From NCBI GenBank assembly GCA_964474965.1, contig CAYYUO010000001.1:1-50738 (forward strand): 50,738 bases of DNA, written 5' to 3'. Made by a program: the position numbers and the translations under genes. The notes beneath the pieces are model-generated. The model saw only the letters and a list, made by a program, of their open reading frames with translations. It ran no database searches and was not told the origin of the DNA. Shown in pieces: positions 4,550 to 20,510 of the stretch; position 1 is the first letter of the stretch, and each line of letters starts with the position of its first letter. This DNA is from an uncultured Dehalococcoidales bacterium. GTDB lineage: Bacteria; Chloroflexota; Dehalococcoidia; GIF9; AB-539-J10.

Positions 4550-4757
4550 GCATCCTCATGATAATTCCAGAATTCTGATAAATGTTATCGGTAAAAAGTG
4601 GGCACTTCTGGACTGAACAACCCGCTATATCGTGCAATGCCAATGTATTCGACTGGAATTTAGAGATACAGGGCAAAAATCAGTGAATCGAGTATTCATC
4701 AAGGTTTGTCAATGACTTATGCTCTCGCTCGTGGCGAAGCTGGAACATTCCAAATGA

Positions 4758-5063
4758 CTATCTATCGAGCCTTTGCGTTGATAATGCTCTCGCAGGTAAT
4801 GTGATATTTTCTCGGCGAGGGCTGAGAGCGCCTCTAACCATCAACCCGTCCACGGGACAGCTTTTCAGACTGGTAACGCTGAATATGCGCTCGGGCTTCA
4901 GTCCGGTCAGTGTTATTTTCCCAAGGGCTGGCATAAGGTGACGGCGGACTATTAGCTCGTATCCTTCGGCAGTCCTGGGGGTAAGGTTAGCCGAAGCGTA
5001 TCCTCTAAGCCACCTCTCCAAATCTTCTGCCGGGGTAACCTTACCAGGTTTAATGAAAGTCCA
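4758..5063 (-). pseudogene. Fragment of a tyrosine recombinase/phage integrase (N-terminal SAM-like domain only)
   Basis: ...KPGKVTPAEDLERWLRGYASANLTPRTAEGYELIVRRHLMPALGKITLTGLKPERI... resembles the integrase core-binding domain. No ATG, no catalytic domain. Double stop (5064-5069) upstream and degenerate remnants possibly down to ~4560. Confidence 0.55.
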
Positions 5064-5077
5064 TTATCAAGCTGGTT

Positions 5078-5407
5078 CAGCAGCAATCGTAGTCTGCCTT
5101 ACCGAGTACTTCAATAAACTCGATCTCTCGATGGCGTAGTCATACCGGCTTATTTCAAGCGTACTTTACTAAGTGAAGTTACTTACAGAATGGCTTTTAA
5201 ATTAAGTCTTTTCAGCAGTCAAAAATAAGCTCTGAATCAGATGGCAAGTATCAGGCAAGGTGATAAGCTAGAAACAAAGACAGAGCTGGCCTTGAGATTT
5301 TTCAGTGCAGCTCATGTCAATAAAGGAGGCAAAGAGAATGGCAACGAGGGGATATTTTATGATCACTGTGGAGGAGGAGTTCTACCGAAATTATTATCAG
5401 GATGTGC
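5078..5407 (+). repeat. Copy A of a 330-bp dispersed direct repeat (partner 17887..18216)
   Basis: 5078-5274 is identical base for base to 17887-18083 (197 bp, checked by hand). 5275-5407 is ~85% identical and covers the SD and first 23 codons of the RAM-domain gene. Confidence 0.95.
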
Positions 5408-5745
5408 TGAGAGACCTGAAAGCCGTGCCTGAGGTAGATTCCATCGAGCGAATCAGCGGTACATACAACCTCTTAGTGAAGGTTACAGCTCCTATGAGGG
5501 TAATCTTCGTCGCTAACAAAATACTACCCAACAAATGGGTCAAACAGTTCTACATCCTCAAGGTTGAGCCTTTCAAACCCCACGATTACGAAGGGCTCAC
5601 TGGTGATGAGCTTGCAAGGCTTGAAGAGTTAATTCCCCAGTCCTTGGGTGGTTATGGAGGGCTCACTGTTGAGGAGCGTTTAAGGATTAAAAGATTAATT
5701 CACGAGTCGCGGGGTAGTCACGGAGCTGCCGGTATACCGCCTTGA
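5338..5745 (+). CDS. Stand-alone Lrp/AsnC ligand-binding (RAM) domain protein with C-terminal extension, 135 aa
   Basis: MATRGYFMITVEEE...VLRDLKAVPEVDSIERISGTYNLLVKV fits the AsnC_trans_reg/RAM pattern and has no HTH. SD AGGAGG lies 8 nt upstream, so the start is moved from the track GTG at 5305. The tail has two GLTxxExxRxxxLI motifs. Confidence 0.7.
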   Translation: MATRGYFMITVEEEFYRNYYQDVLRDLKAVPEVDSIERISGTYNLLVKVTAPMRVIFVANKILPNKWVKQFYILKVEPFKPHDYEGLTGDELARLEELIPQSLGGYGGLTVEERLRIKRLIHESRGSHGAAGIPP

Positions 5746-5773
5746 ATATTGCAATAGGAAAGGAGGTGAAAAA

Positions 5774-6067
5774 ATGGCAACGAAGCGTTACTTGATGATC
5801 AACATGACCGAGGAAGCTTGCAAAAGTGGTTATCGGGATGTGTTGAGAGACCTGATAACTATACCCGAGGTGCAGTCCATTGAGCAGCTGGATGGTGTTT
5901 TCGACCTTATAGTGCAGGTCGAATGCCCTGCCACAGTGGGATATGCAGCAGCTGACGATCTTCTGGCCAAGGGGTGGGTGAAACGCTTGCAGGTTCTGCA
6001 GGTTGAGCCCACTGAGCCTAGTGAAATTATAAGGCCCACAGTGCTAGAGCTGACAAAAAGAGCTTAG
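5774..6067 (+). CDS. Stand-alone Lrp/AsnC ligand-binding (RAM) domain protein, 97 aa (paralogue of 5338..5745)
   Basis: MATKRYLMINMTEE...VLRDLITIPEVQSIEQLDGVFDLIVQV. SD AGGAGG upstream. Confidence 0.7.
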   Translation: MATKRYLMINMTEEACKSGYRDVLRDLITIPEVQSIEQLDGVFDLIVQVECPATVGYAAADDLLAKGWVKRLQVLQVEPTEPSEIIRPTVLELTKRA

Positions 6068-6121
6068 TCAAGCTATTGTGGCAGCTCCATAGCTATAGAA
6101 ATTTTTGTCAGGGAGCTTAAT

Positions 6122-7270
6122 ATGATAGTGAAGACTCCTTACAGAGAAGCAGTAGACGTCCTGGTGGACGAAGGTGGGGAAACCCTCCAGTTATGTTACC
6201 AGTGTGCCTCTTGTACCGGTAGTTGTCCTTGGGGTTTGGTGAGAGATTTCGCTATACATAAAGTAATTCATGAAGCGCAATTGGGTGTAGTTGATTTTGA
6301 GGATGAAGGCATCTGGCTCTGTGTTGCCTGCGGGGCTTGTGTTAACCAGTGTCCCCGGGGTGTGAAGTTAATAGATGTAGTAAAGGCCATACGTAGAACT
6401 GTGATGGAGCTGGGTGTAGGTAAGATGCCTAGTTCACTACGAGTCGCACTGACAAGCATTGCCGGAGTAGGCAATCCAATGGGCGAGGCAAAGGAAAAAC
6501 GAGCAGATTGGGCCAAAGACATGGACGTAAAGACGTTCACTAAGGGTACGGATTTGCTGTATTTTCCCTGCTGCCTGCCTTGCTACGATCCTCTCTTAAA
6601 GGGTATAGCTGGGGCAACCGCTGCTATCCTAAACAAAGCAGGTATAGACTTTGGTATCCTGGGCGCCAACGAAACCTGTTGCGGAGAGGCAATCCGTAAA
6701 GCGGGAAACGAAAGCCTGTTCCAGAGTCTAGCCCAAAAGAACATTACTACTTTCAGCGAAAACTCAGTTAAGAAAGTTCTCGTCAGTTCCCCTCACTGTT
6801 ATCATACTTTTAAACACGAATACCCCGATCTTGGAAGCGACTTTGAGGTAATCCATTCTACTCAGTATTTATTACAGCTTATCAAGGACCACAAGCTGGA
6901 GTTCACTAAAGAGCTAAATATAAAAGTCGTTTATCACGATTCATGCTACCTTGGGCGTCACAACGGCATATATGACGAGCCCCGAGAAGTCTTAAGGAGT
7001 ATCCCGGGGCTGGAGCTGATTGAGTTTCCAGACTACAGGGAGGATAGCATCTGTTGCGGCGGAGGGTCAGGCAGGCTCTGGGTTGATACAGAGAAGGGAC
7101 AAAGATTCTCCGACATCAGGCTGAAACAGGCTATAGATTTAGGAGTTGAAGTACTGGCTGTTGCCTGCCCCTATTGTATGTCTATGTTCAAGGATAGCCA
7201 GTTAACGGTGGATGGAGGCGAGACTGTTGCAGTTAAAGACATCGCAGAATTAGTCAAGGAGGCGATGTAA
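6122..7270 (+). CDS. HdrD-like / fused HdrC-HdrB Fe-S protein (2x[4Fe-4S] + two CCG domains), 382 aa
   Basis: CYQCASCTGSCP and CVACGACVNQCP ferredoxin motifs, then CCG-type Cys motifs (FPCCLPCY, ETCCGE, DSCY, SICCGGG, CPYC). Confidence 0.8.
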   Translation: MIVKTPYREAVDVLVDEGGETLQLCYQCASCTGSCPWGLVRDFAIHKVIHEAQLGVVDFEDEGIWLCVACGACVNQCPRGVKLIDVVKAIRRTVMELGVGKMPSSLRVALTSIAGVGNPMGEAKEKRADWAKDMDVKTFTKGTDLLYFPCCLPCYDPLLKGIAGATAAILNKAGIDFGILGANETCCGEAIRKAGNESLFQSLAQKNITTFSENSVKKVLVSSPHCYHTFKHEYPDLGSDFEVIHSTQYLLQLIKDHKLEFTKELNIKVVYHDSCYLGRHNGIYDEPREVLRSIPGLELIEFPDYREDSICCGGGSGRLWVDTEKGQRFSDIRLKQAIDLGVEVLAVACPYCMSMFKDSQLTVDGGETVAVKDIAELVKEAM

Positions 7271-7286
7271 CTATAAGGAGATAGAT

Positions 7287-9284
7287 ATGGGCAGAAATGG
7301 ACATAGGAGAATTGGAGTCTATATTTGCCATTGCGGGTTAAATATCGCCGGCACGGTGGATGTAGAAGAAGTAGCTGAATATGCCGCCAGTCTGGACTCA
7401 GTAGTGGTGTCCCGTCATTATAGATATATGTGTTCCGATCCAGGGCAAGCGCTGATCAAGGAAGATATCAAGAACCTAGGCCTTAACCGGATAGTTGTCG
7501 CTTCTTGTTCACCAAGAATGCATGAGCTAACCTTCCGCCAAGTTTGCCAGGATAGTGGGCTAAACCCCTACCTATATGAACAAGCGAACATTCGGGAACT
7601 CTGCTCCTGGGTTCATGACGATAAAAAGATAGCTACCGAGAAAGCAAAAGACATAGTAAGGGCTGCAGTGAGACGGGTTTGCTGGAACGAGCCGCTGGAG
7701 GTTAAGGAAGCGACGTTTAACTCCAATGTTTTGGTAGTGGGTGGTGGCATCGCTGGTATACAGGCATCTTTAGATATTGCTAATGGTGAGCATAAAGTCT
7801 ACTTAGTGGAGAGAGAGCCCTCCATCGGCGGGCACATGATTCAGCTTGATAGAACCTTCCCTACTCTGGATTGCTCTGAATGCATCCTTACCCCCAAGAT
7901 GGCTGATGTAGGGCGGCATCCTTTTATTGAGCTTCTAGCCTACAGTGAAGTAGAGGAAGTATCAGGCTCTATAGGCCATTTTAAGGTAATAGTCAGGAAG
8001 AAAGCGCGGCATATAGACGAGAGCAAGTGTATCGGCTGTGGTGTATGTGAGGAAAAATGCCCGTGGAAGGTGGATAGTGAGTTTGAGATGGGCTTAGCAA
8101 AGAGAAAGACAATTTACATCCCATTTGCTCAAGCTATACCCAATCTGCCGACAGTAGATGCAGACCACTGTGCTTATATTCAATCAGGGGGCAGGAAATG
8201 TGGAGCCTGTATAAAGTTCTGTGAAGCAGGAGCTATAACTCCGGAGACTCTTCTTAATCAGACTGACCAAATTGTTGAGTTCGAGGTGGGCTCAATCATC
8301 GTGACTACCGGCTATGATGTCTTTGACCCCAGCGTGATGCCCCGATATGGATATGGTAAGTATGACAATGTGATAACTGGGCTGGAATTTGAGAGGATAA
8401 CCTGTGCCGCGGGTCCAACCGGCGGTAGAATTGTGCTTAAGGATGGTCGAGAGCCAGAAAGTGTGGCTATCATACACTGCGTCGGTAGTCGTGACCAGAA
8501 CTATCACGAGTATTGCTCACGTGTTTGTTGTATGTATGGGCTCAAATATGCCCATCTGATAAAAGAATTTACCAATGCTGAAGTTTATGAGATGTACATT
8601 GATATGCGTTGTTTTGGAGAAGGCTACGAGGAATTCTACAAGCGTGTTTCTGAAGAGGGAGTTACTTTTATAAGGGGAAAAGTGGCTAAGGTCACTGACC
8701 GCGCCATAACTGAGGAGGAAAAGGGGAAGTTGATCGTGTTGTGTGCGGATACTGTGCTGGGGAGCCTGATACGGGTTCCTGTAGACATGGTTATACTGTG
8801 CACAGCCCTGGAGGCACATTCAGATGCAGGGCAAGTCGCCAAGATCTTTACTCTCAACCGAAGGGCAGACGGCTTCTTCTTAGAGCGGCATGTTAAGCTC
8901 GACCCGGTAGCTACGCCAACCGATGGAGTCTTTATTGCTGGCTGCTGTGAAGGTCCAAAGGATATTCCTGATACTGTTGCTCAAGCGTCGGCAGCAGCAG
9001 CCAAAGTACTGTCGCTGATAAGTAAAGGTAAAATTACGCTTGAATCTGCCGTAGCGCAGGTAGATGAAACACGCTGTCTGGGCTGTGGACGGTGCGAAGA
9101 AATATGCGATTTTCATGCTCCCAGGGTCATTCATACAGACGGGCGCTGGGTTTCCACTATAAATGAGACCTTGTGTAAGGGCTGTGGCGCCTGTGCTGTT
9201 GCTTGCCCAACAGGTGCTATGTCAATCCGGCATTTCACTCAGGAGCAGATACTCAGCATGGTCGAGGCTTTAACGGAGGTATAA
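7287..9284 (+). CDS. hdrA: Heterodisulfide reductase subunit A-like flavoprotein, 665 aa
   Basis: N-terminal IGVYICHCGLNIAG domain, VVGGGIAGIQASLD FAD fold, LDCSECILTPKM, VGSRD...YCSRVCCMY and C-terminal 2x CxxCxxCxxxCP. Confidence 0.88.
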   Translation: MGRNGHRRIGVYICHCGLNIAGTVDVEEVAEYAASLDSVVVSRHYRYMCSDPGQALIKEDIKNLGLNRIVVASCSPRMHELTFRQVCQDSGLNPYLYEQANIRELCSWVHDDKKIATEKAKDIVRAAVRRVCWNEPLEVKEATFNSNVLVVGGGIAGIQASLDIANGEHKVYLVEREPSIGGHMIQLDRTFPTLDCSECILTPKMADVGRHPFIELLAYSEVEEVSGSIGHFKVIVRKKARHIDESKCIGCGVCEEKCPWKVDSEFEMGLAKRKTIYIPFAQAIPNLPTVDADHCAYIQSGGRKCGACIKFCEAGAITPETLLNQTDQIVEFEVGSIIVTTGYDVFDPSVMPRYGYGKYDNVITGLEFERITCAAGPTGGRIVLKDGREPESVAIIHCVGSRDQNYHEYCSRVCCMYGLKYAHLIKEFTNAEVYEMYIDMRCFGEGYEEFYKRVSEEGVTFIRGKVAKVTDRAITEEEKGKLIVLCADTVLGSLIRVPVDMVILCTALEAHSDAGQVAKIFTLNRRADGFFLERHVKLDPVATPTDGVFIAGCCEGPKDIPDTVAQASAAAAKVLSLISKGKITLESAVAQVDETRCLGCGRCEEICDFHAPRVIHTDGRWVSTINETLCKGCGACAVACPTGAMSIRHFTQEQILSMVEALTEV

Positions 9285-9285
9285 G

Positions 9286-9750
9286 ATGAATAAGTTTGAA
9301 CCTCAAATTATAGCTTTTGCCTGCAATTGGTGCACTTATGCCGCAGCTGATCTCGCTGGAACAAGTCGCATCCACTATGCACCAAATGTGCGGGTAATAA
9401 GGGTTATGTGCAGCGGGATGGTAAACCCTATATATGCCCTCAAAGCCTTCGAGGGAGGTGCTGATGGGGTTTTGATTGCTGGTTGTCATTATGTAGACTG
9501 CCATTATCTCAACGGTCCAGTGAAATGCGATGCAATGTTTGAAAAATTGAAGAATGTGGTTCATACCCTTGGCCTAGAGGATGAGCGGTTGAGGCGTGAG
9601 ATGATATCTGCCTCCGAGGGGGTAATATTTGCCCGAGTAATTGAAGAGATGGTTGACCGGCTTAAAAAGCTAGGCCCCTCACCTCTCAAAAGGGCGAGAG
9701 AGGAGGCACCCTCACTTCTCAAAAGGGCGAGAGAGGAGGCAACAGTATGA
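9286..9750 (+). CDS. mvhD: MvhD/FlpD-type (methyl-viologen-reducing hydrogenase delta-like) 2Fe-2S protein, 154 aa
   Basis: IIAFACNWCTYAAADLAG...VMCSGMVNP...GADGVLIAGCH..DCHY matches the FlpD/MvhD family. Start is 2 nt after the hdrA stop. Confidence 0.85.
   Translation: MNKFEPQIIAFACNWCTYAAADLAGTSRIHYAPNVRVIRVMCSGMVNPIYALKAFEGGADGVLIAGCHYVDCHYLNGPVKCDAMFEKLKNVVHTLGLEDERLRREMISASEGVIFARVIEEMVDRLKKLGPSPLKRAREEAPSLLKRAREEATV
9676..9741 (+). repeat. 2 x 33-bp in-frame tandem repeat at the mvhD 3' end
   Basis: ccctcacCtctcaaaagggcgagagaggaggca / ccctcacTtctcaaaagggcgagagaggaggca, one mismatch. Encodes PSPLKRAREEA-PSLLKRAREEA. Confidence 0.95.
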
Positions 9751-9851
9751 ACTTGGATGACATCATCAAGGAATCTGTCAGTAAGCTGAAACAATTAGGC
9801 CCATCGCCTTTCGGAAACGTCAAAAATAAAGTCGCACAGGTGGCAATATGA
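9747..9851 (+). CDS. 34-codon micro-ORF echoing the MvhD C-terminal helix (MNLDDIIKESVSKLKQLGPSPFGNVKNKVAQVAI)
   Basis: ATGA overlap with the mvhD stop (9747-9750), and its TGA overlaps the next gene's ATG (9848-9851). SD AGGAGG lies 7 nt upstream. IIKESVSKLKQLGPSP parallels MvhD VIEEMVDRLKKLGPSP. Confidence 0.4.
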   Translation: MNLDDIIKESVSKLKQLGPSPFGNVKNKVAQVAI

Positions 9852-11023
9852 TGGCACTGGAGAGCGTTGTTAAGAAAACTAGTTTAGAGGATATTATCAG
9901 GGAGAGTAAGACCTTCTATTGCCTGGAGTGCGGCAAGTGTTCAAGTATATGTCCAATTTCCCGATATGACCCCTCTTACTCTCCGCGAGCGATGGTAGAA
10001 GATGCACTTCTGGGACTTGAAGGTGATCTGATCCACAATAAAGAGTTGTTTTCTTGTTTAACCTGCGGTGCCTGCCAACTCAAATGTCCCTCCGATGTCA
10101 ACTATCTTCTCTTCATCCGGAAGATGAGAGCTTTGGCCTCAAATAACGGCGAACATGGGGACTGCGCTCATTCCGGCACCATACAATCTCTAATTCGACT
10201 CATGGCAAATACTGGTGTAGAACAGAGGAGACTGGAATGGCTGTCTAATGGATACCGAACCTCTGACCAGAGCAAGGTTCTGTTTTGGGTTGGCTGTGCC
10301 CCTTACTTTGACCCTATCTTTGAAGACCTCGGGGTCAAAGTCACCGATGTTGCCAAAGGAAGCTTAAGAATACTCAATTCGTTGGGGGTAGAACCGATGC
10401 TGCTTCCCGACGAGAAATGCTGCGGGCATGATATGCTCTGGACCGGCGATGTAGAAACCTTTGAGAAACTGGCCCAGAGGAATGCAGCAATGATAAAGGA
10501 GGCGGGGGTGGAAAAGATAATCTTCTCCTGTCCCGAATGCTACCGCACATTTAAGGAAGATTATCCTAATTACGTAGAGATTGACTGCGAATTGCAGCAC
10601 ATCAGCGAGTTTCTGTCTGAGGCTATAGAAAAAGATGGCCTGAGGTTTAAAAAGATCAGGAAAAAGGTAACCTACCATGATCCCTGTAGATTGGGAAGGC
10701 ACCTGGGCGTTTATGAGCCGCCTAGGGAAGTAATCCAGGCCATCCCGGGCATAGAATTAGTTGAAATGGAACAGAGCAGGGAGGAATCTCTTTGCTGCGG
10801 CACCAGCGCCTTTACTAACTGTGACTCATATTCCAAGCGGATAAGAATTGAGAGATTGCTTGAGGCAAAAGCCACTGGTGCTGATACCCTTATAACCACC
10901 TGCCCTAAATGTCAAATTCACTTCAGGTGTGCCATGGTAAACAAGGGGGAGGAAAAGGGACCGGATATTGAGATTGAGGTTATGGACATGGTGAACCTGG
11001 TAGCAAATGCTTTGGAGGTTTAG
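9848..11023 (+). CDS. HdrD-like / fused HdrC-HdrB Fe-S protein, 391 aa (second copy)
   Basis: CLECGKCSSICP and CLTCGACQLKCP motifs, then CCG motifs (EKCCGHD, FSCPECY, HDPCRLGR, SLCCGTS, TCPKC). Confidence 0.8.
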   Translation: MMALESVVKKTSLEDIIRESKTFYCLECGKCSSICPISRYDPSYSPRAMVEDALLGLEGDLIHNKELFSCLTCGACQLKCPSDVNYLLFIRKMRALASNNGEHGDCAHSGTIQSLIRLMANTGVEQRRLEWLSNGYRTSDQSKVLFWVGCAPYFDPIFEDLGVKVTDVAKGSLRILNSLGVEPMLLPDEKCCGHDMLWTGDVETFEKLAQRNAAMIKEAGVEKIIFSCPECYRTFKEDYPNYVEIDCELQHISEFLSEAIEKDGLRFKKIRKKVTYHDPCRLGRHLGVYEPPREVIQAIPGIELVEMEQSREESLCCGTSAFTNCDSYSKRIRIERLLEAKATGADTLITTCPKCQIHFRCAMVNKGEEKGPDIEIEVMDMVNLVANALEV

Positions 11024-11027
11024 AACG

Positions 11028-13754
11028 ATGAGTGACTCTGTTTTGGTAATTGGTGGTGGCATAGCAGGTATTCAAGCTTCTATCGACCTGGCCAATATGG
11101 GCTTTCAAGTATATCTTGTGGAGAGGTCGCCCAGTATCGGCGGGAGGATGGCACAGCTGGATAAGACATTCCCTACCAATGATTGTGCCATGTGTATTCT
11201 AGCCCCTAAGATGATCGAGTGTTATAGACACCGGAACATCAGGGTATTGAGTTACTCCGAAGTTGCTGCGGTAGAGGGTGAGTTGGGTAATTTCGAAGTC
11301 GAGATACTAAAGAAACCCGGATATGTTGATGAGACCAAGTGCACCGGCTGTGGAGAATGTGCCCAAGTTTGCCCGGTCGAACTGAAAAACGAATTCGACC
11401 AGGGAATCGGCAACAGAAAAGCAATATACAAGCCTTTTGCCCAAGCTATTCCCAACATTTACGTCATTGACAAAAGGGGGACAGCGCCCTGTAAGGCAGC
11501 CTGTCCTGTGGGTCTGGATATCCAGGGATATATTGCTCTCATTTCTCAGGGTAAATTTAAAGAGGCCTTTCATCTCATCAGGCAAAAGGTTATCCTACCG
11601 GCTACCGTTGGCAGGGTATGCACTCACCCGTGTGAGACAGAATGTAATCGTGGGAAAGTGGATGAACCAATTGCTATCGCTGCTCTGAAAAGGTTCGTGG
11701 CTGACCATGAACTGGATACAAGGACAGAGGAGATAGCACCTGCCCCCCGGACACAAGATGCGAAGGTGGCTGTTGTCGGTTCCGGGCCGGCTGGCTTAAC
11801 TGCGGCTAACGACCTGGTTCTTATGGGCTATGGAGTGACTATTTTCGAGGCATTACCTGTTCCCGGTGGTATGCTGGCAGTGGGTATCCCTGACTATCGC
11901 CTGCCTAAGGAAATGCTTAAAAGGGAAATCGAGGATATCCAGAAGCTTGGAGTGGAGATAAGGCTTAACAGTCCCGTGGGTAAAAAAGGTCTAAAACTAG
12001 ATGACCTTTGGCAAGAGGGTTACAAGGCGATTTTCATCGCCGTAGGGGCCCACAAAAGTGCCAATCTTGATATTCCCGGCGAAGGCTTTGAAGGCGTCTA
12101 TCACGGTGTTTCCTTTCTAAGAGATGTCAACCTTGGGAAGAAGGTTACACCGGGCGAAAAGATAGCAGTAGTCGGCGGCGGTAATGTAGCCATCGATGCT
12201 GCCCGAACAGCTCTCAGGCTCGGCTCCAGAGAAGTAACCATCGTATATCGTAGGTCCAGACATGAGATGCCGGCAAATGAAGAGGAGATAGTGGAGGCTG
12301 AGCATGAGGGGATCAAAATTCAATACCTGGTTACCCCGGTAAGAATTTTGGGAGAGGATGGAAGAGTATCAGGTATGGAGTGTATTAAGATGGAACTCGG
12401 GGCGCCCGATGCCAGCGGTAGGAGACAGCCTATAGCTATAGAAGGCTCGCAGTTTACTATAGACGTGGACACGGTTATCCTGGCCATTGGGCAGAGCCCC
12501 GACCTTTCGCTGCTTCCTAAGGATAGTAGATTCCAGGTATCGCCCAGAGGGACATTGGCAGTTGATGATAATAGCCTGGCCACCAGTATGCCCGGGGTAT
12601 TCGCCGGTGGAGATGCTGTGCTTGGGCCAGCCACCGTAGTACAGGCCATAGCAGCAGGACATAGAGCAGCCACCGCCATTGACAGCTATCTGAGAGACGA
12701 GATGATTCCACCTGAACAAGAACCACTCCCGATTACAACCATTGAGGATGTGGACTTGAGGGGCAAAGAGCAGAAAAATCGCGTGGCAATGCCTACCGTG
12801 GCCCCTAAGAAGAGGTTAACCGATTTTAGAGAGGTGAACCTCGGTCTCAGCGCAAAAATGGCGATAGAGGAAGCAAAGAGGTGCCTGAACTGTGGTGGCT
12901 GTTCTGGATGCCGGGAATGTGAAAAGGTCTGCCAGGCTAAGGCTATAAACCACGAAATGAAGGAGGAATTCCTGAGACTGAATGTCGGTGCCATTATCCT
13001 GGCTACTGGTTTCGACTTCTACGACGTTTCAAAACTTGGAGAATATGGTTATGGAAGGATAGCCAATGTTATCACTGCTATTGAGTATGAAAGATTAACA
13101 TCAGCTTCCGGCCCTACATGTGGTGAACTCAAGCGCCCTTCAGATGGCAATATTCCGTCCAATATAGCCTTCATCCAGTGTGTTGGCTCCCGCGACTTCA
13201 ATAACATGCCATATTGCTCCAGCGTATGCTGTATGCATGCTATTAAGGAAGCCATACTAGCCTATGAACATCATCCCGGGACAAAATCTACTATCTTTTA
13301 TATGGATTTGAGAGCGGTGGGGAAACGGTTTCAGGAATATGTTACCAGAGCTAAGGAAGAATACAACGTAACATATATCAGAGGTCGCCCCGGGAGAATT
13401 GCTCTCAATACCACTAATGGCAACCCGATCATCTGGTATGAGAACACTACTACCGGGGAAACGAAGACTTTTGAGGCAGAGCTGGTGATTCTCTCCCAGG
13501 CTTTGATTCCGTCTAAAGGCATTGAAGAGTTAGCCAGCATATTGGGCATAAGTCTAGACAAGTACGGGTTCGCTGAAATTCCAGATAAGCTGTTCTCTCC
13601 TCTCGACACCACTAGACCGGGTATCTTTGCCTGTGGCTATGCTCATAGTCCAAGAGATATCCCTGACTCTGTCGTTCAAGGTTCGGCAGCGGCAGATAGA
13701 GCTGCTGAAGCTACAACAGCTAGAACGCCTAGCTTTGTAGCGGGAGGTGTTTGA
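11028..13754 (+). CDS. HdrA-like flavoprotein with an inserted GltD/NfnB-type NAD(P)H:FAD oxidoreductase module (HdrL-like), 908 aa
   Basis: HdrA N-part (VIGGGIAGIQASIDL, NDCAMCILAPKM, CTGCGECAQVCP). Then a full GltD-like unit (PCKAACPV...CTHPCETECNRG, VVGSGPAGLTAA, VVGGGNVAIDAAR, VFAGGDAV). Then the HdrA continuation (ATGFDFYD, CVGSRD, YCSSVCCMH). Start moved to ATG 11028, which follows SD GGAGG. Confidence 0.82.
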   Translation: MSDSVLVIGGGIAGIQASIDLANMGFQVYLVERSPSIGGRMAQLDKTFPTNDCAMCILAPKMIECYRHRNIRVLSYSEVAAVEGELGNFEVEILKKPGYVDETKCTGCGECAQVCPVELKNEFDQGIGNRKAIYKPFAQAIPNIYVIDKRGTAPCKAACPVGLDIQGYIALISQGKFKEAFHLIRQKVILPATVGRVCTHPCETECNRGKVDEPIAIAALKRFVADHELDTRTEEIAPAPRTQDAKVAVVGSGPAGLTAANDLVLMGYGVTIFEALPVPGGMLAVGIPDYRLPKEMLKREIEDIQKLGVEIRLNSPVGKKGLKLDDLWQEGYKAIFIAVGAHKSANLDIPGEGFEGVYHGVSFLRDVNLGKKVTPGEKIAVVGGGNVAIDAARTALRLGSREVTIVYRRSRHEMPANEEEIVEAEHEGIKIQYLVTPVRILGEDGRVSGMECIKMELGAPDASGRRQPIAIEGSQFTIDVDTVILAIGQSPDLSLLPKDSRFQVSPRGTLAVDDNSLATSMPGVFAGGDAVLGPATVVQAIAAGHRAATAIDSYLRDEMIPPEQEPLPITTIEDVDLRGKEQKNRVAMPTVAPKKRLTDFREVNLGLSAKMAIEEAKRCLNCGGCSGCRECEKVCQAKAINHEMKEEFLRLNVGAIILATGFDFYDVSKLGEYGYGRIANVITAIEYERLTSASGPTCGELKRPSDGNIPSNIAFIQCVGSRDFNNMPYCSSVCCMHAIKEAILAYEHHPGTKSTIFYMDLRAVGKRFQEYVTRAKEEYNVTYIRGRPGRIALNTTNGNPIIWYENTTTGETKTFEAELVILSQALIPSKGIEELASILGISLDKYGFAEIPDKLFSPLDTTRPGIFACGYAHSPRDIPDSVVQGSAAADRAAEATTARTPSFVAGGV

Positions 13755-13755
13755 C

Positions 13756-15435
13756 ATGTCTGATGTTCGCATTGGTGTCTTTGTATGTCACTGTGGCCGC
13801 AATATCGGCGCGTATATAGATGTCCCCCAAGTGACAGAGTACGCCAGAGGGCTGCCAAATGTGGTACATGCCGAGCACAACCTATTCACCTGTTCCGTGG
13901 AGGGAACCTCGGCAATAAAGAAGGCAACAGCGGAACACAATCTTAACCGGGTTGTAGTAGCCTCATGCACCCCCAGAACGCATGAGACACTCTTCAGGTC
14001 TATTTGCGAGGAGGCCGGGCTAAACAAATACCTGTTCGAGATGGCTAATATAAGAGATCAATGTTCTTGGATACATATGGAGTATCCCAAGGAAGCCACG
14101 GAAAAAGCTAAGGGACTTGTCGCGTCGGCGGTTGCCAAGGCTCGACTACTCGAGCCATTAGAAGAGATTGAGATAGAGGTGCTGCCATCCTGTCTGGTAA
14201 TTGGTGGCGGCATAGCCGGGATGACCGCGGCTTTAAACCTGGCAGATCAAGGTTTCCATGTCAACCTGGTGGAGAAGGAAACAGAGCTTGGCGGCAACCT
14301 GTCGACCCTACATAAGCTTTTCCCTACCAATCAGGATGCAAAGGAATTAATTACCCCTCTCATACGCCAAGTGAAGGAACATGACAAAATAAGTACCTAC
14401 CTCAGTGTAAAGGTCAAGGCAGTAACCGGGTTCATAGGTAATTACGATGTTACCCTAGACCATGAAGGTGAGGAGATCAAGCTTAAGGCGGGGACAATCA
14501 TAGTTGCCGTCGGGGCTGAGGAATTCAAGCCAACAGGACAATATGGTTACGGGGAAATGACGGGAGTACTCACTCAACTGGAGCTAGAAAAGCAGATGAA
14601 AGAGGGCAATGTTGATGGACAAAACATCGTGATGATCAACTGTGTGGGCAGTCGTACCGCCGAAAGATCATACTGCAGCCGATTTTGTTGCGTAGCTGCC
14701 ATAAAGAATGCCGCCCTCATCAAGGAAAACAACCCGGCGGCAAATGTGTGGATTCTACATCGTGATTTGATGGCTTATGGCGTAGACTTCGAAGACTACT
14801 ACCGCAAGGCTCAAGAAGCGGGCGTCAGATTCATCCGTTATGATCTGGCAAGGCCGCCTGAGGTTATCGGGAATGGGCATGTTGAAGGGGTAAGAGTATA
14901 CCATCAGCTAAGGCAAAGCGAGCTGGAGCTCCCTTGTGACAAGGTTGTGCTCACGACCCCCCTTGTTCCTCGCAGTGACAACGATGAGATAAGCAAGATA
15001 CTGAAGGTCCCCTTGAGCCAGGAAGGTTTCTTCATGGAGGCACATCTCAAGTTACGTCCCGTAGAGTTTGCTACCGATGGCATCTTCATATGTGGTTCGG
15101 CCCGCTGGCCGGTAGAAGTGAGCGAGGCCATCTTCCAAGGTTATGCTGCTGCAGCAAAGGCAGCAATACCTATGAGAATGGGCTACGTGAAACCCGAGGC
15201 TATAACTGCTTGCGTAGATAAGGGACGCTGTGCGGGGTGTGGTATCTGCGCTACTTTGTGCCCGTATAACGCGATTGAGCTGAAGTCAGATAATGGTAAA
15301 AAGAGTTCGAGTGTAATTACTGCATTATGTAAAGGTTGCGGAACCTGTGCCGCCGCCTGTCCCTCTGGGGCAATATCAATGGACCACTTCAAAACTGAAC
15401 AGATTGTGGCACAAATAGAAGCACTGTTCAAGTAG
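13756..15435 (+). CDS. hdrA: Heterodisulfide reductase subunit A-like flavoprotein, 559 aa (third paralogue)
   Basis: IGVFVCHCGRNIGA, VIGGGIAGMTAALNL, CVGSRT..SYCSRFCCVAA and C-terminal CAGCGICATLCP / CKGCGTCAAACP. ATG lies 1 nt after the upstream stop, with SD GGGAGG. Confidence 0.85.
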   Translation: MSDVRIGVFVCHCGRNIGAYIDVPQVTEYARGLPNVVHAEHNLFTCSVEGTSAIKKATAEHNLNRVVVASCTPRTHETLFRSICEEAGLNKYLFEMANIRDQCSWIHMEYPKEATEKAKGLVASAVAKARLLEPLEEIEIEVLPSCLVIGGGIAGMTAALNLADQGFHVNLVEKETELGGNLSTLHKLFPTNQDAKELITPLIRQVKEHDKISTYLSVKVKAVTGFIGNYDVTLDHEGEEIKLKAGTIIVAVGAEEFKPTGQYGYGEMTGVLTQLELEKQMKEGNVDGQNIVMINCVGSRTAERSYCSRFCCVAAIKNAALIKENNPAANVWILHRDLMAYGVDFEDYYRKAQEAGVRFIRYDLARPPEVIGNGHVEGVRVYHQLRQSELELPCDKVVLTTPLVPRSDNDEISKILKVPLSQEGFFMEAHLKLRPVEFATDGIFICGSARWPVEVSEAIFQGYAAAAKAAIPMRMGYVKPEAITACVDKGRCAGCGICATLCPYNAIELKSDNGKKSSSVITALCKGCGTCAAACPSGAISMDHFKTEQIVAQIEALFK

Positions 15436-15515
15436 GCTATTCAGGATATAGATTACATAGACCGAATCCAACCGAACCGATAGCTCCGACTATGAATTAT
15501 GTTCAGGATGCTCGA

Positions 15516-15544
15516 TTGAAGTTATAAGGAATGTAAGTTACAAT
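15516..15544 (+). promoter_or_regulatory. Candidate sigma70-type promoter of the two-component operon
   Basis: TTGAAG-17 nt-TACAAT, 26 nt upstream of the response-regulator ATG (by eye). Confidence 0.45.
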
Positions 15545-15570
15545 TAAAAGTGGAAATAGCTTGAGACGTC

Positions 15571-16236
15571 ATGGATAAGACCAAGGTTCTGCTCGCTGAG
15601 GATCATATAGTAGTGCGAGAAGGCACTCGTGAGCTTATACAGCGTCAACCGGACATGGAAGTCGTTGGTGAAGCCAGCGACGGTGAAGAAGCAGTGGCGC
15701 TGACCGCCAAGCTGCGCCCGAATGTAGTGATAATGGACATCGCCATGCCCAAGCTCAATGGCATAGAGGCTACCAAGCAGATAAAGCAGCACAACCCGGC
15801 TGTAGCAGTGCTGGTACTCACTGCCTATCCTAATGAGGAGTACGTCTTTGCCCTCTTGGAGGCAGGAGCAGCTGGCTACTTGCTCAAGAACGTGCGGGGA
15901 AGCCAATTTATTGATGCTATTCGGGCAGTAAACAGTGGGGAGTCGGTGCTCCATCCTACAATTGCCCGCAGGGTTATAGAACGACTAACATCCCCGGCTA
16001 ACAGTAGCACCGAGGCACAGGCAACCGAGCCCCTGAGTGAGCGCGAGTTGGATGTATTGAAGTTAGCCGCCAAAGGCATAAGCAATAAGGATATTGCCGA
16101 GCAATTATTCCTAAGCCCACGCACGGTCCAGGTCCATCTGGGACACATCTTTACCAAGCTGGGCGTAGCCTCGCGCACTGAGGCTGTATTATACGGCTTG
16201 AGAAGAGGCTGGTTGATGCTCGAAGACCTTCCCTGA
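15571..16236 (+). CDS. NarL/FixJ-family response regulator (REC + LuxR-type HTH), 221 aa
   Basis: VLLAEDH...VVIMDIAMPKLNG receiver motifs. C-terminal LSERELDVLKLAAKGISNKDIAEQLFLSPRTVQVHLGHIFTKLGV. Confidence 0.92.
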   Translation: MDKTKVLLAEDHIVVREGTRELIQRQPDMEVVGEASDGEEAVALTAKLRPNVVIMDIAMPKLNGIEATKQIKQHNPAVAVLVLTAYPNEEYVFALLEAGAAGYLLKNVRGSQFIDAIRAVNSGESVLHPTIARRVIERLTSPANSSTEAQATEPLSERELDVLKLAAKGISNKDIAEQLFLSPRTVQVHLGHIFTKLGVASRTEAVLYGLRRGWLMLEDLP

Positions 16237-16274
16237 TCTGTGCCCGGTTCAAATACTTGAGGGTTGTTACGCAG

Positions 16275-17720
16275 ATGGCTCGATATCTACCAGCCCGGGT
16301 GCTAAAGGTTGTGCGTAATCCCCATTTCTGGGCTGTGGCGGCAATGTTTGCCATTGTCACAGTCTTCCAATACTCGCAACAGACGCTAGGCACAGATTTA
16401 CCATTCCCAGGTCTAAGTCGACATAGTGTAGAACGAGTTTTCCTCCTCGCTCCTGTAACTTATGCCGGTTTTTTCCTTGGCACAAGGGCAGGTATAGCTA
16501 GTTTAGCGGTGGCGTGCGCCATTATGTTGCCCCGGGCCATTTTTATCTCTCCCCACCCCGGCGATGCTTTGCTTGAAAGCGCCGGTGTTGTTGCCATTGG
16601 TGCTGTTGTGAACTTGTTGTTCTATTTGTTTCGAAAGGAAAGGAATCGCTCCCAACAAGCCCTTTCAGCACTGGAAACAGCTAACCAGGAAGTTCGAGAG
16701 TCGCAGGAAAGCTATAAGGGCTTGTTCGAAGGTGCCTATGACGCCATCTGGGTTTATGATTTGGAAGGTAACATTCAATCGGCAAACAAGGCAGCTGCCA
16801 GACTAAACGGTTACCCTGTGGAAGAGTTACTGAGGATGAACATAAGGTCGTTCCTCAGTGATGAAAGCTTACACCTGGCAAGAGAGGTTCAAGATAAGTT
16901 AACTAGAAATGAACCGGCAGCCATGCCCTACGAACAAAGGATAATTAAGAAAGATGGCTCAGAGGCAATATGTCTGCTTGCCACCAGCTTGATTTCCAGT
17001 AATGGTGAGCCAAAGGGTTTTCAGAGTATCGCCAGAGATGTAACTGAAGAGAAGCGAATGCAAGAGAATTTACGCTATTATTTGCAGCAGATTACCAAAG
17101 CTCAGGAGGAGGAGCGGAGGCGTATGGCACGAGAGCTTCATGACGATACAGCCCAACAATTGGTGGTACTCGCACGCAGGTTGGATAACCTTCTTTGTAA
17201 TGCCGACCGTTTATCCCAGCAGGATATTACATTCCTGGAGGGGGTAAGACAGCAAACCGATGAGATATTGGATGGAGTGCATCGTTTTTGCCAGGACCTG
17301 CGACCCTCAGTACTGGATGACCTGGGTCTCCTGCCGGCGCTGCAATCGCTGACCTCCGACCTAACGGAGCACTTTGGAATACCTATTGCCATGGGTAGTG
17401 CCGGCTCTGTGCGGCGTTTGTCTCCCGAGATAGAATTGATACTATTCCGTATCGCTCAAGAAGGACTAAGGAACATGTGCCGGCATTCAAAGGCATCCAG
17501 ATGCTGGATCATGATAGAATTCAGCAATGATAAGGTCGTTTTAAATGTTAAAGACAATGGCCGGGGCTTTAAGTTGCCGGATAGGGTAGAAGACCTGGCC
17601 GCTGTTGGCAAGCTTGGGCTTGCTGGGATGCAAGAGCGGGCCCGACTTATCGGTGGCAAGCTAACAATAGAGTCAAAGCCAGGCAAAGGGACAACCGTGA
17701 GCGTGGAGATCCCAATTTAG
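16275..17720 (+). CDS. Membrane sensor histidine kinase (TM region + PAS + HisKA_3 + HATPase_c), 481 aa
   Basis: Hydrophobic N-terminal ~120 aa. PAS-like region (YKGLFEGAYDAIWVYDLEGN). H-box RMARELHDDTAQQL. ATPase motifs DNGRGF and GLAGMQERA..GG. Start taken at ATG 16275 rather than the track TTG at 16257. Confidence 0.88.
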   Translation: MARYLPARVLKVVRNPHFWAVAAMFAIVTVFQYSQQTLGTDLPFPGLSRHSVERVFLLAPVTYAGFFLGTRAGIASLAVACAIMLPRAIFISPHPGDALLESAGVVAIGAVVNLLFYLFRKERNRSQQALSALETANQEVRESQESYKGLFEGAYDAIWVYDLEGNIQSANKAAARLNGYPVEELLRMNIRSFLSDESLHLAREVQDKLTRNEPAAMPYEQRIIKKDGSEAICLLATSLISSNGEPKGFQSIARDVTEEKRMQENLRYYLQQITKAQEEERRRMARELHDDTAQQLVVLARRLDNLLCNADRLSQQDITFLEGVRQQTDEILDGVHRFCQDLRPSVLDDLGLLPALQSLTSDLTEHFGIPIAMGSAGSVRRLSPEIELILFRIAQEGLRNMCRHSKASRCWIMIEFSNDKVVLNVKDNGRGFKLPDRVEDLAAVGKLGLAGMQERARLIGGKLTIESKPGKGTTVSVEIPI

Positions 17721-17886
17721 GACAGCCTGGGACACTTTGAGTTTAACATTTACTAGTTGGATATATAAGCGCAAATATCAAGGAAAGGTCTGCCAGGGGA
17801 CACGAGGATTTGCTCACTTGTGGTCCCATTGTTTTAATAGGAATCCACTACCTGAATTCCAAGCGTCTTTAGCCAGACTAGGATAA

Positions 17887-18216
17887 CAGCAGCAATCGTA
17901 GTCTGCCTTACCGAGTACTTCAATAAACTCGATCTCTCGATGGCGTAGTCATACCGGCTTATTTCAAGCGTACTTTACTAAGTGAAGTTACTTACAGAAT
18001 GGCTTTTAAATTAAGTCTTTTCAGCAGTCAAAAATAAGCTCTGAATCAGATGGCAAGTATCAGGCAAGGTGATAAGCTAGAAATAAAGGCAGAGCCAGTC
18101 CTGAGATTTTTCAGCACAGCTCATGTCAATAAAGAGGACAAAGAGAATGGCAACGAGGGGATATTTTATGATCACTGTGACGGAGGGTTTCTACCGAAAT
18201 TATTACCAGAATGTGC
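17887..18216 (+). repeat. Copy B of the 330-bp dispersed direct repeat (partner 5078..5407)
   Basis: See copy A: 197 bp identical, then ~85% identity through a truncated RAM-gene 5' end. Confidence 0.95.
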
Positions 18217-18221
18217 ACTGA
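18147..18221 (+). pseudogene. 24-codon 5' stub of a RAM-domain gene (MATRGYFMITVTEGFYRNYYQNVH*); possible uORF overlapping the acs start
   Basis: First 11 codons are identical to 5338.. . The SD is degraded (AAAGGAGGC -> AAAGAGGAC). The stop at 18219-18221 overlaps the acs ATG (18211) by 11 nt. Confidence 0.6.
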
Positions 18222-20214
18222 ACTATCTTTACCATTTGAGTCCAGATATTTGCCTCTGAGGAAATTCCTTGATATTTACCAGGAGTCCCTGGAGGAGCCA
18301 GAGGAGTTCTGGGCAGAACAGGCACGTCAGCTGGACTGGTTTAAGACCTGGGACAAGGTTCTGGAATGGAATCCACCCTTTGCCAGATGGTTTGTAGGTG
18401 GGAGATTAAACGCATCGCATATATGTGTGGACCGCCATGTAAAGACGTGGCGCAGAAGTAAGGTGGCTATATACTGGGAAGGGGAGCCTGGAGATGTTAG
18501 AGTTTTAAGTTATTCCACATTATATCGCGAAGTCAACAGATGCGCCTCAGTCTTAAAGAACTGTGGCGTAGGTGATGGGGACAAGGTTGCTTTATATCTG
18601 CCCATGATTCCCGAGCTGCCCATTTTCATGCTGGCCTGTGCCAGGATTGGGGCCATTCACACAGTGATTTTCTCTGGTTTCAGTGCTCAAGCATTAGCTG
18701 ACAGGGTCAATGATATACAGGCCAAGTTACTGGTAACTGCCGATGGGGGATTTCGGAAGGGGAAGGTAATCCCGCTAAAGAGTATAACCGATGAGGCCTT
18801 AACCAAGTGCCCCTCGGTGGAGAGGGTTATTGTAGTTAAAAGGGCTGGTGTTTCGGTAACCATGAAGTCACCAAGGGATTGCTGGCTGCATGACGTGCTT
18901 GTTAAAGCGGCGCAATTTGTGGAACCAGAGCAGGTGGAATCGAATCACCCCCTCTATATACTGTATACCTCGGGGACTACGGGCAAGCCTAAAGGAATTG
19001 TTCACAGTACCGGTGGCTATCTAGTCCAGAACTATTCTGCTTATAAGTGGGTTTTCGATCTTCGAGAGGAATCGGTCTACTGGTGCACTGCTGATGTTGG
19101 TTGGGTCACCGGACATAGCTCAACTGTATATGCCCCGCTGGCACATGGGGCGGCCATAGTACTTTATGAGGGGGCACCGGACTATCCTACAATTGAGAGA
19201 TGGTGGGATATCATCGAGAAATACGGAGTTAGCGTGTTTTACACCTCACCTACAGCCATCAGGATGTTTATGGGATATGGAGAGGCAATGCTGAAGGAGC
19301 ATAACCTCAGCAGTCTGGAACTCCTGGGGAGTGTGGGAGAGCCCATCAATCCCGAAGCCTGGCTCTGGTTTTACCGCCATGTTGGCGGTGAGAGATGCCA
19401 CGTTGTTGATACATGGTGGCAGACCGAAACCGGTGGCATCATGATTTCACCCACCCCTGGCATAATCGAGTGTGTGCCTCTGAAGCCTGGCTCAGCAACA
19501 TTCCCGCTGCCGGGGATAGAGGTTGATGTCGTTGGTGAGGATGGCAAGCCGGTGTCGCCGGAGCAGAGAGGTTTCCTGGTAATAAAGAGACCCTGGCCGG
19601 GGATGCTCCTCGGCGTACACGGAAACCCGGAACGCTACAAGGAATCCTACTGGTCACGGTTCCCTGGCGTTTACTATACCGGCGACTATGCAGTAAAAGA
19701 CAAAGATGGATACTTCTGGGTCTTGGGAAGGGCTGACGAGGTGCTTAAAATCGCCGGACATAGAATAGGAACTGTTGAATTGGAGGACGCTGCCATCTCA
19801 CATCCTCAGGTGGCTGAAGCAGCGGTTGTGGGCAAAGAGGACCCGGTGAAAGGTGAGAGCATCATCATCTTTGCCAGGCTCAAAGAAGGTATTGACCCTT
19901 CTCCGGACCTGGAAAAAGATCTTGCTGGTCACATGAGAAAAGTGGTGGGTCCTATAGCAGTTCCTGATGAAGTTTATTTCGTCCCCAGGCTACCCAAGAC
20001 GAGGAGTGGCAAAGTTCTGCGGCGGGTTTTGAAAGCCGTGGCCAATAATACCAGCGTGGGAGACCTCACAACCCTGGAAGACAAAAGCTCCGTGGAGGAA
20101 ATAATCAAGGTCTATCAGGACCTCAAAGCCATAAGACAAAGCCATGACGGCTTCATCCCTGAACTAATAGCACGTAAGGAGGTAAAATGGAAATTACTCA
20201 ACAAGACTGGATAG
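18211..20214 (+). CDS. acs: AMP-forming acetyl-CoA synthetase, 667 aa
   Basis: EEFWAEQARQLDWFK, YTSGTTGKPKG, YWCTADVGWVTGHS, GDYAVKDKDGYFWVLGRADEVLKIAGHRIGTVELE, PKTRSGKVLRR. The exact start is uncertain because ATG 18211 has no SD. Confidence 0.92.
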   Translation: MCTELSLPFESRYLPLRKFLDIYQESLEEPEEFWAEQARQLDWFKTWDKVLEWNPPFARWFVGGRLNASHICVDRHVKTWRRSKVAIYWEGEPGDVRVLSYSTLYREVNRCASVLKNCGVGDGDKVALYLPMIPELPIFMLACARIGAIHTVIFSGFSAQALADRVNDIQAKLLVTADGGFRKGKVIPLKSITDEALTKCPSVERVIVVKRAGVSVTMKSPRDCWLHDVLVKAAQFVEPEQVESNHPLYILYTSGTTGKPKGIVHSTGGYLVQNYSAYKWVFDLREESVYWCTADVGWVTGHSSTVYAPLAHGAAIVLYEGAPDYPTIERWWDIIEKYGVSVFYTSPTAIRMFMGYGEAMLKEHNLSSLELLGSVGEPINPEAWLWFYRHVGGERCHVVDTWWQTETGGIMISPTPGIIECVPLKPGSATFPLPGIEVDVVGEDGKPVSPEQRGFLVIKRPWPGMLLGVHGNPERYKESYWSRFPGVYYTGDYAVKDKDGYFWVLGRADEVLKIAGHRIGTVELEDAAISHPQVAEAAVVGKEDPVKGESIIIFARLKEGIDPSPDLEKDLAGHMRKVVGPIAVPDEVYFVPRLPKTRSGKVLRRVLKAVANNTSVGDLTTLEDKSSVEEIIKVYQDLKAIRQSHDGFIPELIARKEVKWKLLNKTG

Positions 20215-20510
20215 TATATGAGGAGGTCAGGACAAACCTAATAGCTAAACTGACAGGACGAGTTCGTTTTGGCAGGGTGCTAGGCTTGCCCAAAGAAAAG
20301 TTAGAGTGGATTCGAAACCACTACTGCGAGCTGAGTAAAGAATTCAACATGGAAATTACTCAACAAGACTGGATAGCATATGAGGAGGTCAGGACAAACC
20401 CAATAGCTACACTGACAGGACGAGTTCGTTTTGGCAGGGTGCTAGGCTTGCCCAAAGAAAAGTTAGAGTGGATTCGAAACCACTACTGCGAGCTGAGTAA
20501 AGAATTCAAC
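20187..20510 (+). repeat. 2 x 162-bp near-perfect tandem duplication
   Basis: 20187-20348 versus 20349-20510 gives 159/162 identical (hand-aligned). The junction shares ATGG microhomology with the downstream ATGGGGCAATGA. Confidence 0.95.

Follow-up and report, generated by a model that had tools for sequence, protein, structure and literature searches.

The acetyl-CoA synthetase gene acs*, which lies in the window analysed here (the whole 50,738-nucleotide (nt) stretch of a contig from an uncultured Dehalococcoidales bacterium), has lost the Shine-Dalgarno sequence (SD) and the start codon found at the same gene in related genomes, and in their place it has captured an ATG (18211) from the truncated copy, or stub, of a neighbouring gene, RAM1, in which this ATG was out of frame. 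Taken together, the comparisons with related genomes and metagenome contigs tip the balance modestly towards a history in which acs* came to sit behind a duplicated operon head and a deletion of ~0.9 kb then joined the two, so that translation would now begin at 18211 mainly by SD-independent initiation, with stop–start coupling to the stub as a supplement.

The start region of acs*

A BLAST search of 17701–18320 against the window returned a 330-nt repeat, 5078–5407 (copy A) and 17887–18216 (copy B), with 94.85% identity (17 mismatches and 0 gaps), and the repeat occurs twice in the metagenome-assembled genome (MAG) that was searched, which comprises 1.04 Mb, is 67% complete, and includes the window as its whole contig C1. 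At copy A, RAM1 stands first and is followed by RAM2 and a long hdr-like operon. RAM1 matches the Pfam family AsnC_trans_reg with 27.8 bits (cut-off 25), i.e., it possesses the ligand-binding RAM domain of the Lrp/AsnC proteins without a DNA-binding domain, as is characteristic of stand-alone RAM-domain genes; RAM2 scores 22.2 bits for the same family, under the cut-off, and homologues of RAM1 were found in Chloroflexota MAGs. Copy B is preceded by a NarL-type regulator and a PAS histidine kinase, and its place among the other features is given in Table 1.

The preliminary description of this stretch had noted that copy B carries the RAM ATG at 18147 and codons 1–23 before ending in the stop at 18219–18221, that the ATG at 18211, 11 nt inside this stub, is the only in-frame ATG giving Acs an N-terminus of normal length, and that the same triplet in copy A (CAG G-ATG-TG) is out of frame inside the intact RAM1, all of which the sequence bears out. 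It had also remarked that acs* has no SD of its own, and indeed neither an SD nor another purine-rich element is found within the 20 nt upstream of 18211 (cgaaattattaccaga). The start reads ..TATTACCAGA ATG TGC A/CT GAA CTA.. (MCTELSLPFESRY), where the slash precedes position 18218, and its ATGTGC corresponds to RAM1 codons 22–24 (CAG RAT GTG C..) in another frame. ATG 18211 is the first ATG, GTG or TTG past an in-frame stop (TGA 18178–18180), and the protein that follows is a full-length Acs (Pfam E-values of 3.8e-23 for ACAS_N, 1.3e-86 for AMP-binding and 1.4e-26 for AMP-binding_C), 83–89% identical to the Acs proteins of the same genus, with ACAS_N starting at residue 21. As the only canonical start that yields the conserved N-terminus, ATG 18211 is what we infer to be the start of acs*. 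A GGAGG within the stub (18182–18186) was also considered as the SD of acs* and rejected; its distance from the ATG is 24 nt, and two contigs with the same type of joint (L047 and L048, see below) lack it.

The native form of this start was established from the relatives. When 17887–18300 was compared with 40 related species genomes, DNA homology began only at 18217–18224, in 11 genomes of the same genus, and the 330-nt leader was absent before acs in all matched genomes among the 40. At 13 acs loci of the same genus the gene starts as GGAGGAGG-N7-ATG GCT GAA, in full ..GGAGGAGGTCAAGCT ATG G/CTGAATTATCTTTACC.. (MAELSLPFESRY), with a strong and conserved SD 7–9 nt ahead of the ATG. Their homology to the window begins at 18218, so that the native SD and ATG of the window's gene are gone. 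C 18218 is the second base of native codon 2, and A 18217 was either inserted as filler or arose by a G-to-A change in that codon. Of the claim that Acs acquired its 5′ region and start codon from RAM-gene sequence, this much stands, as everything upstream of CTGAA (18218) is RAM-derived; the accompanying idea that the stub was born of the duplication itself does not, since the stub is best read as the result of a later deletion of ~0.9 kb within a larger duplicated segment. A simple microhomology deletion at CTGA was examined and discarded, as it predicts ATGTGCTGAAC and ATGTGCACTGAAC is observed.

The genes upstream of acs in the relatives encode Rieske, rubrerythrin and MBL-type proteins, and the kinase is not among them. 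Within the window's own genome, contig C70 carries a native-type acs 3′ end and contig C60 the native upstream neighbourhood, which identifies the gene in the window as a relocated paralogue, hence the designation acs*. Native Acs ends in ..YQELKEEKEKKK before the stop, whereas acs* ends in ..YQDLKAIRQSHDGFIPELIARKEV.. and overlaps the next ORF (open reading frame); the novel tail (specific peptide AIRQSHDGFIPELIAR; the stub peptide is ATRGYFMITVTEGFYR) is common to all three types of joint described below, and therefore marks the paralogue and points to a single origin of the 3′ joint. In several species of the genus (G001:C59, G010:C122, G022) native acs is present in two or three tandem copies. 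Directly after acs*, a 54-codon ORF without a match in a Pfam search is duplicated in tandem (162 nt; window 20184–20507), as it also is at L046 4614–4919, L047 5476–5811 and L049 5470–5805, and its occurrence in contigs of types I, II and III implies that this tandem duplication is old; together with the tail, it makes acs* recognisable. L042 represents a further reshuffling of these elements, with one such unit (1215–1414) flanked by two RAM1 copies and acs absent.

Table 1. Features of the window around the two repeat copies and acs*; aa, amino acids.
Feature	Coordinates	Strand	Description
Repeat copy A	5078–5407	+	260-nt leader, RAM1 codons 1–23 and one extra base, at the head of the hdr-like operon
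RAM1	5338–5745	+	Intact stand-alone RAM-domain gene, 135 aa, parent of the stub
RAM2	5774–6067		RAM1 paralogue
Repeat copy B	17887–18216	+	Leader and RAM1 stub, between the histidine kinase gene (end 17720) and acs*
Leader part identical to copy A (5078–5274)	17887–18083	+	197 nt, probable recent gene-conversion tract, putative promoter/operator
SD-like GAGGA of the stub	18134–18138	+	8 nt before ATG 18147; GGAGG in copy A
Stub ORF	18147–18221	+	24 codons, MATRGYFMITVTEGFYRNYYQNVH, then TGA 18219–18221; remnant of a second RAM1 copy (RAM1-B)
Start/stop overlap	18211–18221	+	11 nt, ATGTGCACTGA; acs* ATG 18211–18213, stub TGA 18219–18221
Deletion joint	18216–18218	+	RAM-derived up to C 18216; native acs homology from C 18218
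acs*	18211–20214	+	667 aa, AMP-forming acetyl-CoA synthetase paralogue, captured start codon, without an SD of its own
TTG	18250–18252	+	Sole alternative canonical in-frame start (residue 14)
C-terminal tail of acs*	20128–20214	+	Novel, 28 aa; replaces the Lys-rich native end ..KEKEKKK (stop)

Joint types and the history of the locus

The exact 28-nt joint was found in four independently assembled metagenome contigs, L037 (99.1% identical to the window), L040 (~96%) and L038/L039 (~91.4%), all with the order kinase, leader, stub, acs* as in the window, and it is therefore not an assembly artefact; a scan of species genomes for the exact joint returned no match beyond the window's own genome. 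A search with the novel tail led to four protein clusters, one of which (P0044, starting MCTELSLPF) comes from contigs L047 and L048, ~89% identical to the window. Their joint has a single C-to-T change that leaves the ATG, the frame and the overlapping TGA in place and turns TGC into TGT, a change that is silent for Acs and replaces H by Y in the stub frame. Since these two contigs were found via the protein tail and not with the joint as bait, their agreement with the window is unbiased. This joint, called type III, is thus carried by four lineages (window/L037, L040, L038/L039 and L047/L048).

Two other joints were recovered in front of the same gene. Type I (L046 and L053) has the full RAM1, RAM2 and a 5′ hdrD piece (hdrD′), then a native SD and ATG. 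In L046 the leader is followed by RAM1 (143 aa as called), RAM2, a 59-codon hdrD-like fragment and ~43 nt of native acs upstream sequence, and acs starts as TTAGGAGGTTAGGCT ATG GCT GAA and ends in the same novel tail as acs*; the preliminary description had proposed to look for a full RAM gene before acs in relatives, and here one stands in that place, directly ahead of the orthologous gene together with RAM2 and the hdrD fragment. The window's stub and RAM1-B of L046 have the B-type diagnostic bases TACC.GAATGTGC in common (A-type TATCAGGATGTGC), and the L046 leader matches the window 35 nt further to the left than copy A does. L053 is a more decayed variant. Type II (L049–L052) has the regulator, kinase and leader as in the window, and its RAM1 is cut after codon 14, which is joined through a GAGTT microhomology to the native acs upstream region at about −58; GGAGGAG and ATG GCT GAA are intact, while the stub ATG has become AGG and the stub SD GAAGG. 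In a tree with the native genes of the genus, all acs* sequences group among them as a single clade (100/99 support). As to the arrangement of the copies, the A-type and B-type leader/RAM1 units of L046 (1–499 on the minus strand, and 1392–2415) are inverted and ~0.9 kb apart, unlike copies A and B of the window, which are in direct orientation and 12.8 kb apart.

Type II holds native upstream bases that are missing in type I, and type III holds RAM1 codons 15–23 that are missing in type II, so that no type can be derived from any other. Most simply, all three would go back to a common ancestor that had the entire duplicated operon head and 58 nt or more of native acs upstream sequence, and three different deletions would have followed. 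In this history acs* would have come to sit behind a duplicated RAM–hdr operon head, consisting of an integrase-fragment flank, the leader, RAM1-B, RAM2-B and the 5′ part of hdrD, and the redundant duplicate would then have decayed through deletions to give three alleles in related populations. The type III deletion, which in the window corresponds to L046 1756–2645 (~890 nt), would have started at RAM1-B codon 23 and ended where acs codons 1 and 2 meet, removing the gene's own GGAGG and ATG and bringing the out-of-frame ATG of RAM1 (..CAG A-ATG-TGC) into the acs frame, with the protein changing from MAELS.. to MCTELS... Segmental duplication followed by deletion is what copies A and B, the native upstream sequence in 13 relatives and the joints of types I (L046, L053) and II (L049–L052) point to, the latter two as intermediates or alternatives.

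In the window, the integrase flank consists of a disrupted tyrosine-integrase gene (4758–5077; Pfam Phage_int_SAM_3), which is encoded on the minus strand and lies left of the leader. Between this flank and the leader, an extra segment of ~135 nt is present in L049 (B copy, 2934–3181) and in L041 (A copy, 710–849). As it occurs in both an A and a B copy, the original duplication must have extended further to the left than the 330 nt, and its absence from copy A of the window explains why the repeat seems to start at 5078. A 74-aa minus-strand frame left of the leader in L049, which resembles an integrase arm domain, gave no significant match in a Pfam search.

How ATG 18211 is reached

Every acs* recovered in types I–III is open over all covered codons (up to ~655), including each type III contig that reaches the gene (657 aa in L038, L039, L047 and L048), and a comparison of the window with L038 or L047 over ~1900 nt, at a nucleotide divergence of 10–12%, shows neither stops nor indels. 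The Nei–Gojobori method (NG86) gave for the window and L038 a synonymous divergence (dS) of 0.418 and a nonsynonymous divergence (dN) of 0.041, i.e., a dN/dS of 0.099, with 0.095–0.146 for pairs of native acs; since both sequences carry the joint, this divergence postdates the loss of the native SD and ATG. From these comparisons acs* is concluded to be an expressed gene. It could be argued that it is an unexpressed, decaying duplicate, in which the open frame and the low dN/dS are maintained by conversion from native acs and the stub is neutral debris, since the genome possesses another acs with a native C-terminus (C70) and a native-type upstream context (C60), and acs* is a mosaic, its alignment positions 300–450 in the window being 96% identical to the native gene of another species (G007). 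Against this stand the open frames of all acs* sequences over their covered codons, the persistence of the type III allele in four lineages that have diverged by up to 11%, and the tail, which is specific to the paralogue, so that it could not be refreshed from the native copies, and yet is kept open. Such a dead gene is regarded as highly improbable.

If transcription of acs* occurs behind the duplicated leader and its translation begins at ATG 18211, initiation would be mainly of the ordinary SD-independent kind, which appears to be the majority mode of this genome and would be helped by an AU-rich, weakly folded context. Of 779 long ORFs, 34% have an SD core at −18 to −5, and for 136 ORFs whose starts are unambiguous the share is 40%, over a background of 13–15%, an estimate based on crude ORF-based start calls, which is a point against leaning on it. 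The region from −30 to +33 around 18211 folds with −5.2 kcal/mol, compared with averages of −9.2 for gene starts and −13.0 for internal ATGs, so that the acs* start is less structured than 89% of the former and 98% of the latter; the AU content at −20 to −1 is 65%. Ribosomes that end at the stub UGA (18219–18221) may also reinitiate at the AUG 8 nt upstream, as a bonus and not as a requirement.

The preliminary description had gone further and suggested that translation of Acs may depend on this route, i.e., ribosomes would load at the SD and ATG of the stub, translate 24 codons, terminate at UGA 18219–18221 and restart at AUG 18211. The geometry is suggestive, with an 11-nt stop/start overlap, no SD before 18211, and a stub that inherits the initiation region of RAM1, unchanged in L038/L039 and with GGAGG retained in L047/L048; moreover, the stub keeps an ATG or GTG in all four type III lineages and has lost it in type II, which has its own acs SD. 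Coupling is known to work without a downstream SD, best at about −8 to +10 nt, with the last 15 nt of the upstream ORF being sufficient (PMC10666635, PMC12548453). The 11-nt overlap, however, exceeds the common classes of −1, −4 and −8 (PMC10666635), and the condition of the stub in the four lineages does not suggest a requirement. It has 24 codons behind GAGGA and ATG in the window and L037, behind GGGGA and ATG in L040, and behind GGAGG and GTG in L047 and L048; in L038 and L039, with GGAGG and ATG, it ends at a TAA at codon 16 (from TAC), 16 nt before the acs ATG. The overlap is thus kept in three of four lineages (window/L037, L040 and L047/L048), and in the fourth it is replaced by a gap of +16 nt. 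Reporters lose 40–80% of reinitiation at +14 nt (PMC10666635), yet acs is intact in these contigs. The weakening of the stub SD that had been noted between copy A (AAAGGAGGC) and copy B (AAAGAGGAC) is real, and it is recent and confined to the window's lineage, as GGAGG still stands in L038/L039 and L047/L048.

Rates of change along the locus lead in the same direction. Between the window and L047, the stub before the acs ATG (18147–18210) has 17% mismatch and the 60 nt before it, including its SD (18087–18146), 23%, versus 7% in the first 200 nt of the leader (17887–18086), 5% in the first 100 nt of acs past the overlap (18222–18321) and 12% in the remaining acs up to the novel tail (18322–20130). 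It is therefore in the stub and its SD region that the locus evolves fastest; of the 24 stub residues, seven differ, and one stop among ~16 substitutions is, by our own estimate, close to the neutral expectation. The comparison thus gives no support to the stub being maintained by selection. With the stub at 17% and the first 100 nt of acs at 5%, a lineage with a premature TAA, a majority of SD-less genes in the genome and an unusually open context at 18211, a dependence of acs on termination–reinitiation finds no support and is considered unlikely, if still to be taken seriously.

A bolder version would make the stub a working upstream ORF (uORF), so that acs*, having lost every initiation signal of its own, is translated only by ribosomes handed over across the 11-nt overlap. 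Gene conversion would keep its 197-nt leader the same as that of the hdr operon and thereby place acetate activation under the regulatory input of the RAM–Hdr complex; the lesions of the stub would then represent tuning of the Acs level and not decay. This appears quite doubtful. The start could also lie further downstream, at TTG 18250 or a non-canonical codon, leaving MCTELSLPFESRY untranslated. For the L038-like protein P0045 a gene caller did take the equivalent TTG, at Acs residue 14, and in the window, L037, L040 and L038/L039 this codon is derived from TTT. Since TTT stands there in the type III contigs L047/L048, in both other types and in most native genes, TTG 18250 cannot be a shared start, and L047/L048 have no other canonical start ahead of ACAS_N; no SD precedes the TTG, residues 3–13 (ELSLPFESRY) are conserved as protein across the genus, and the sole codon 2 change does not alter the Acs residue. 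A downstream start is accordingly rated very improbable. A third-frame ORF of 69 codons (18050–18259), which spans the leader, the stub and the acs start, was considered as well and dismissed, since L038 and several A-type leaders have indels that disrupt its frame; its counterpart in L049 was called by JGI as a 56-aa gene, and it is probably not a gene.

Several points weigh against the history and the SD-independent start favoured here. The postulated ancestor, with the full duplicate and at least 58 nt of native acs upstream sequence, was found in no contig. Type III is not monophyletic in the acs tree, where type II L049 is sister to type III L038, and sliding windows reveal recombination, including with native acs copies: L049 and L038 are 96–99% identical over alignment positions 150–1200 and differ in the 5′ 150 nt and the joint, whereas three type III genes share 96% mutual identity only in the first 150 nt. 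The joints thus act like alleles that homologous recombination moves around, and there is exchange of sequence between acs* and the native copies. Because of this recombination and the non-monophyly of type III, the order of the deletions cannot be read from the tree, and a single clean order of the three is ruled out. Part of the low dN/dS could stem from gene conversion with the functional native paralogues. All four type III lineages retain a usable stub start codon and a purine-rich SD-like element, and type II, with its own acs SD, has lost the stub ATG (AGG); this pattern would be predicted by coupling dependence, in a sample too small to exclude chance. Finally, it is from sequence that we infer the N-terminus of Acs*, its transcription start and the translation of the stub.

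The shared leader and comparison with known systems

The two leaders of the window have a history of their own. All 17 mismatches between copies A and B fall in the final 133 nt, and the 197 nt of 17887–18083 are free of them, a clustering with a probability of ~2e-7 by our own arithmetic if mismatches were evenly spread. Over 17887–18086, copy A differs from copy B at one of 200 positions, from the A-type leaders of other lineages at 20–25, and copy B differs from the orthologous B leaders at 5–32; in the tree, copy A groups with the B copies of the window, L037 and L040 at 100/99 support. This indicates that, in the window's lineage, the two leaders have recently undergone gene conversion with each other. 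Between lineages, 17887–18083 is the best-conserved noncoding segment (7–8.5% mismatch), and it is presumed to be a shared promoter or operator, a function that is assumed, as scans of both leader copies for sigma-70 promoters and intrinsic terminators found none. Neither did a scan of 4500–19000 against Rfam at E<=1 return a family, and none of the folds of the leader, the SD region and the stub/acs overlap beats those of shuffled sequences (z −0.57 to +0.53); a small hairpin at 18088–18127 and 5279–5318 displays no convincing compensatory change.

Promoter capture by duplication is reportedly what created the rnk–citT module of Cit+ Escherichia coli in the long-term evolution experiment. There, as in the window, a duplicated 5′ region with a truncated gene stub lies before another gene and supplies its upstream signals; the acs* event is an old and natural one, spread over several diverged populations, in which the deletion also took the target's SD and start codon, so that the translation signals were replaced too, and the promoter in its leader is putative. 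Regulatory leader peptides and uORFs such as ermCL, tnaC and mgtL sense signals through a conserved peptide or codon content. The stub is likewise a short ORF with its own SD in a 5′ leader, overlapping the downstream initiation region, but its peptide is variable (with one premature stop in addition), no attenuator or terminator-like site is predicted, the folds are unremarkable (z −0.11 to +0.53) and no Rfam family matches; with neither the peptide nor a structure conserved, it does not qualify as a regulatory leader peptide of the usual kind. SD-poor bacteria are known to initiate without an SD where the start region is unstructured and rich in A/U, and acs* resembles such starts in its missing SD, its weak fold, its AU content and its SD-poor genome. 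Unlike ordinary SD-less genes, however, acs had a strong conserved SD until the deletion, and its initiation mode was therefore switched.

With the termination–reinitiation pairs (Huber et al. 2019, PMC6728339; PMC10666635; PMC12548453) the locus shares the co-directional arrangement, a downstream gene without an SD, and an upstream ORF with an SD and start codon and a stop 8 nt past the downstream AUG. The upstream ORF is here a 24-codon gene remnant and no partner subunit, and the overlap is 11 nt instead of the usual 1, 4 or 8 and is lost in one of the four lineages; the comparison argues against a dependence on coupling, and acs* would belong to these pairs by geometry only.

The start-codon capture at acs* is a clear natural case of a known type of event, not a new mechanism, and the locus appears to combine the capture of an upstream region by duplication with an upstream ORF that overlaps in stop and start. 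It documents, with natural intermediates, how a single deletion can remove the ribosome-binding site and the start codon of a gene that remains under purifying selection, and it is a clean demonstration of a start replaced by the out-of-frame ATG of a neighbour's remnant. Automated start calling is unstable at acs*, and gene callers that give weight to the SD may misplace starts in this SD-poor lineage. The leaders of acs* and the hdr operon, evolving in concert, hint at a co-regulation of acetate activation with an Hdr-like redox complex. The three co-existing alleles, which have the same gene and leader and differ in the presence of an acs SD and in the state of the stub, form a series suited to measuring the shares of SD-independent and stop–start-coupled initiation in an SD-poor, uncultured phylum.

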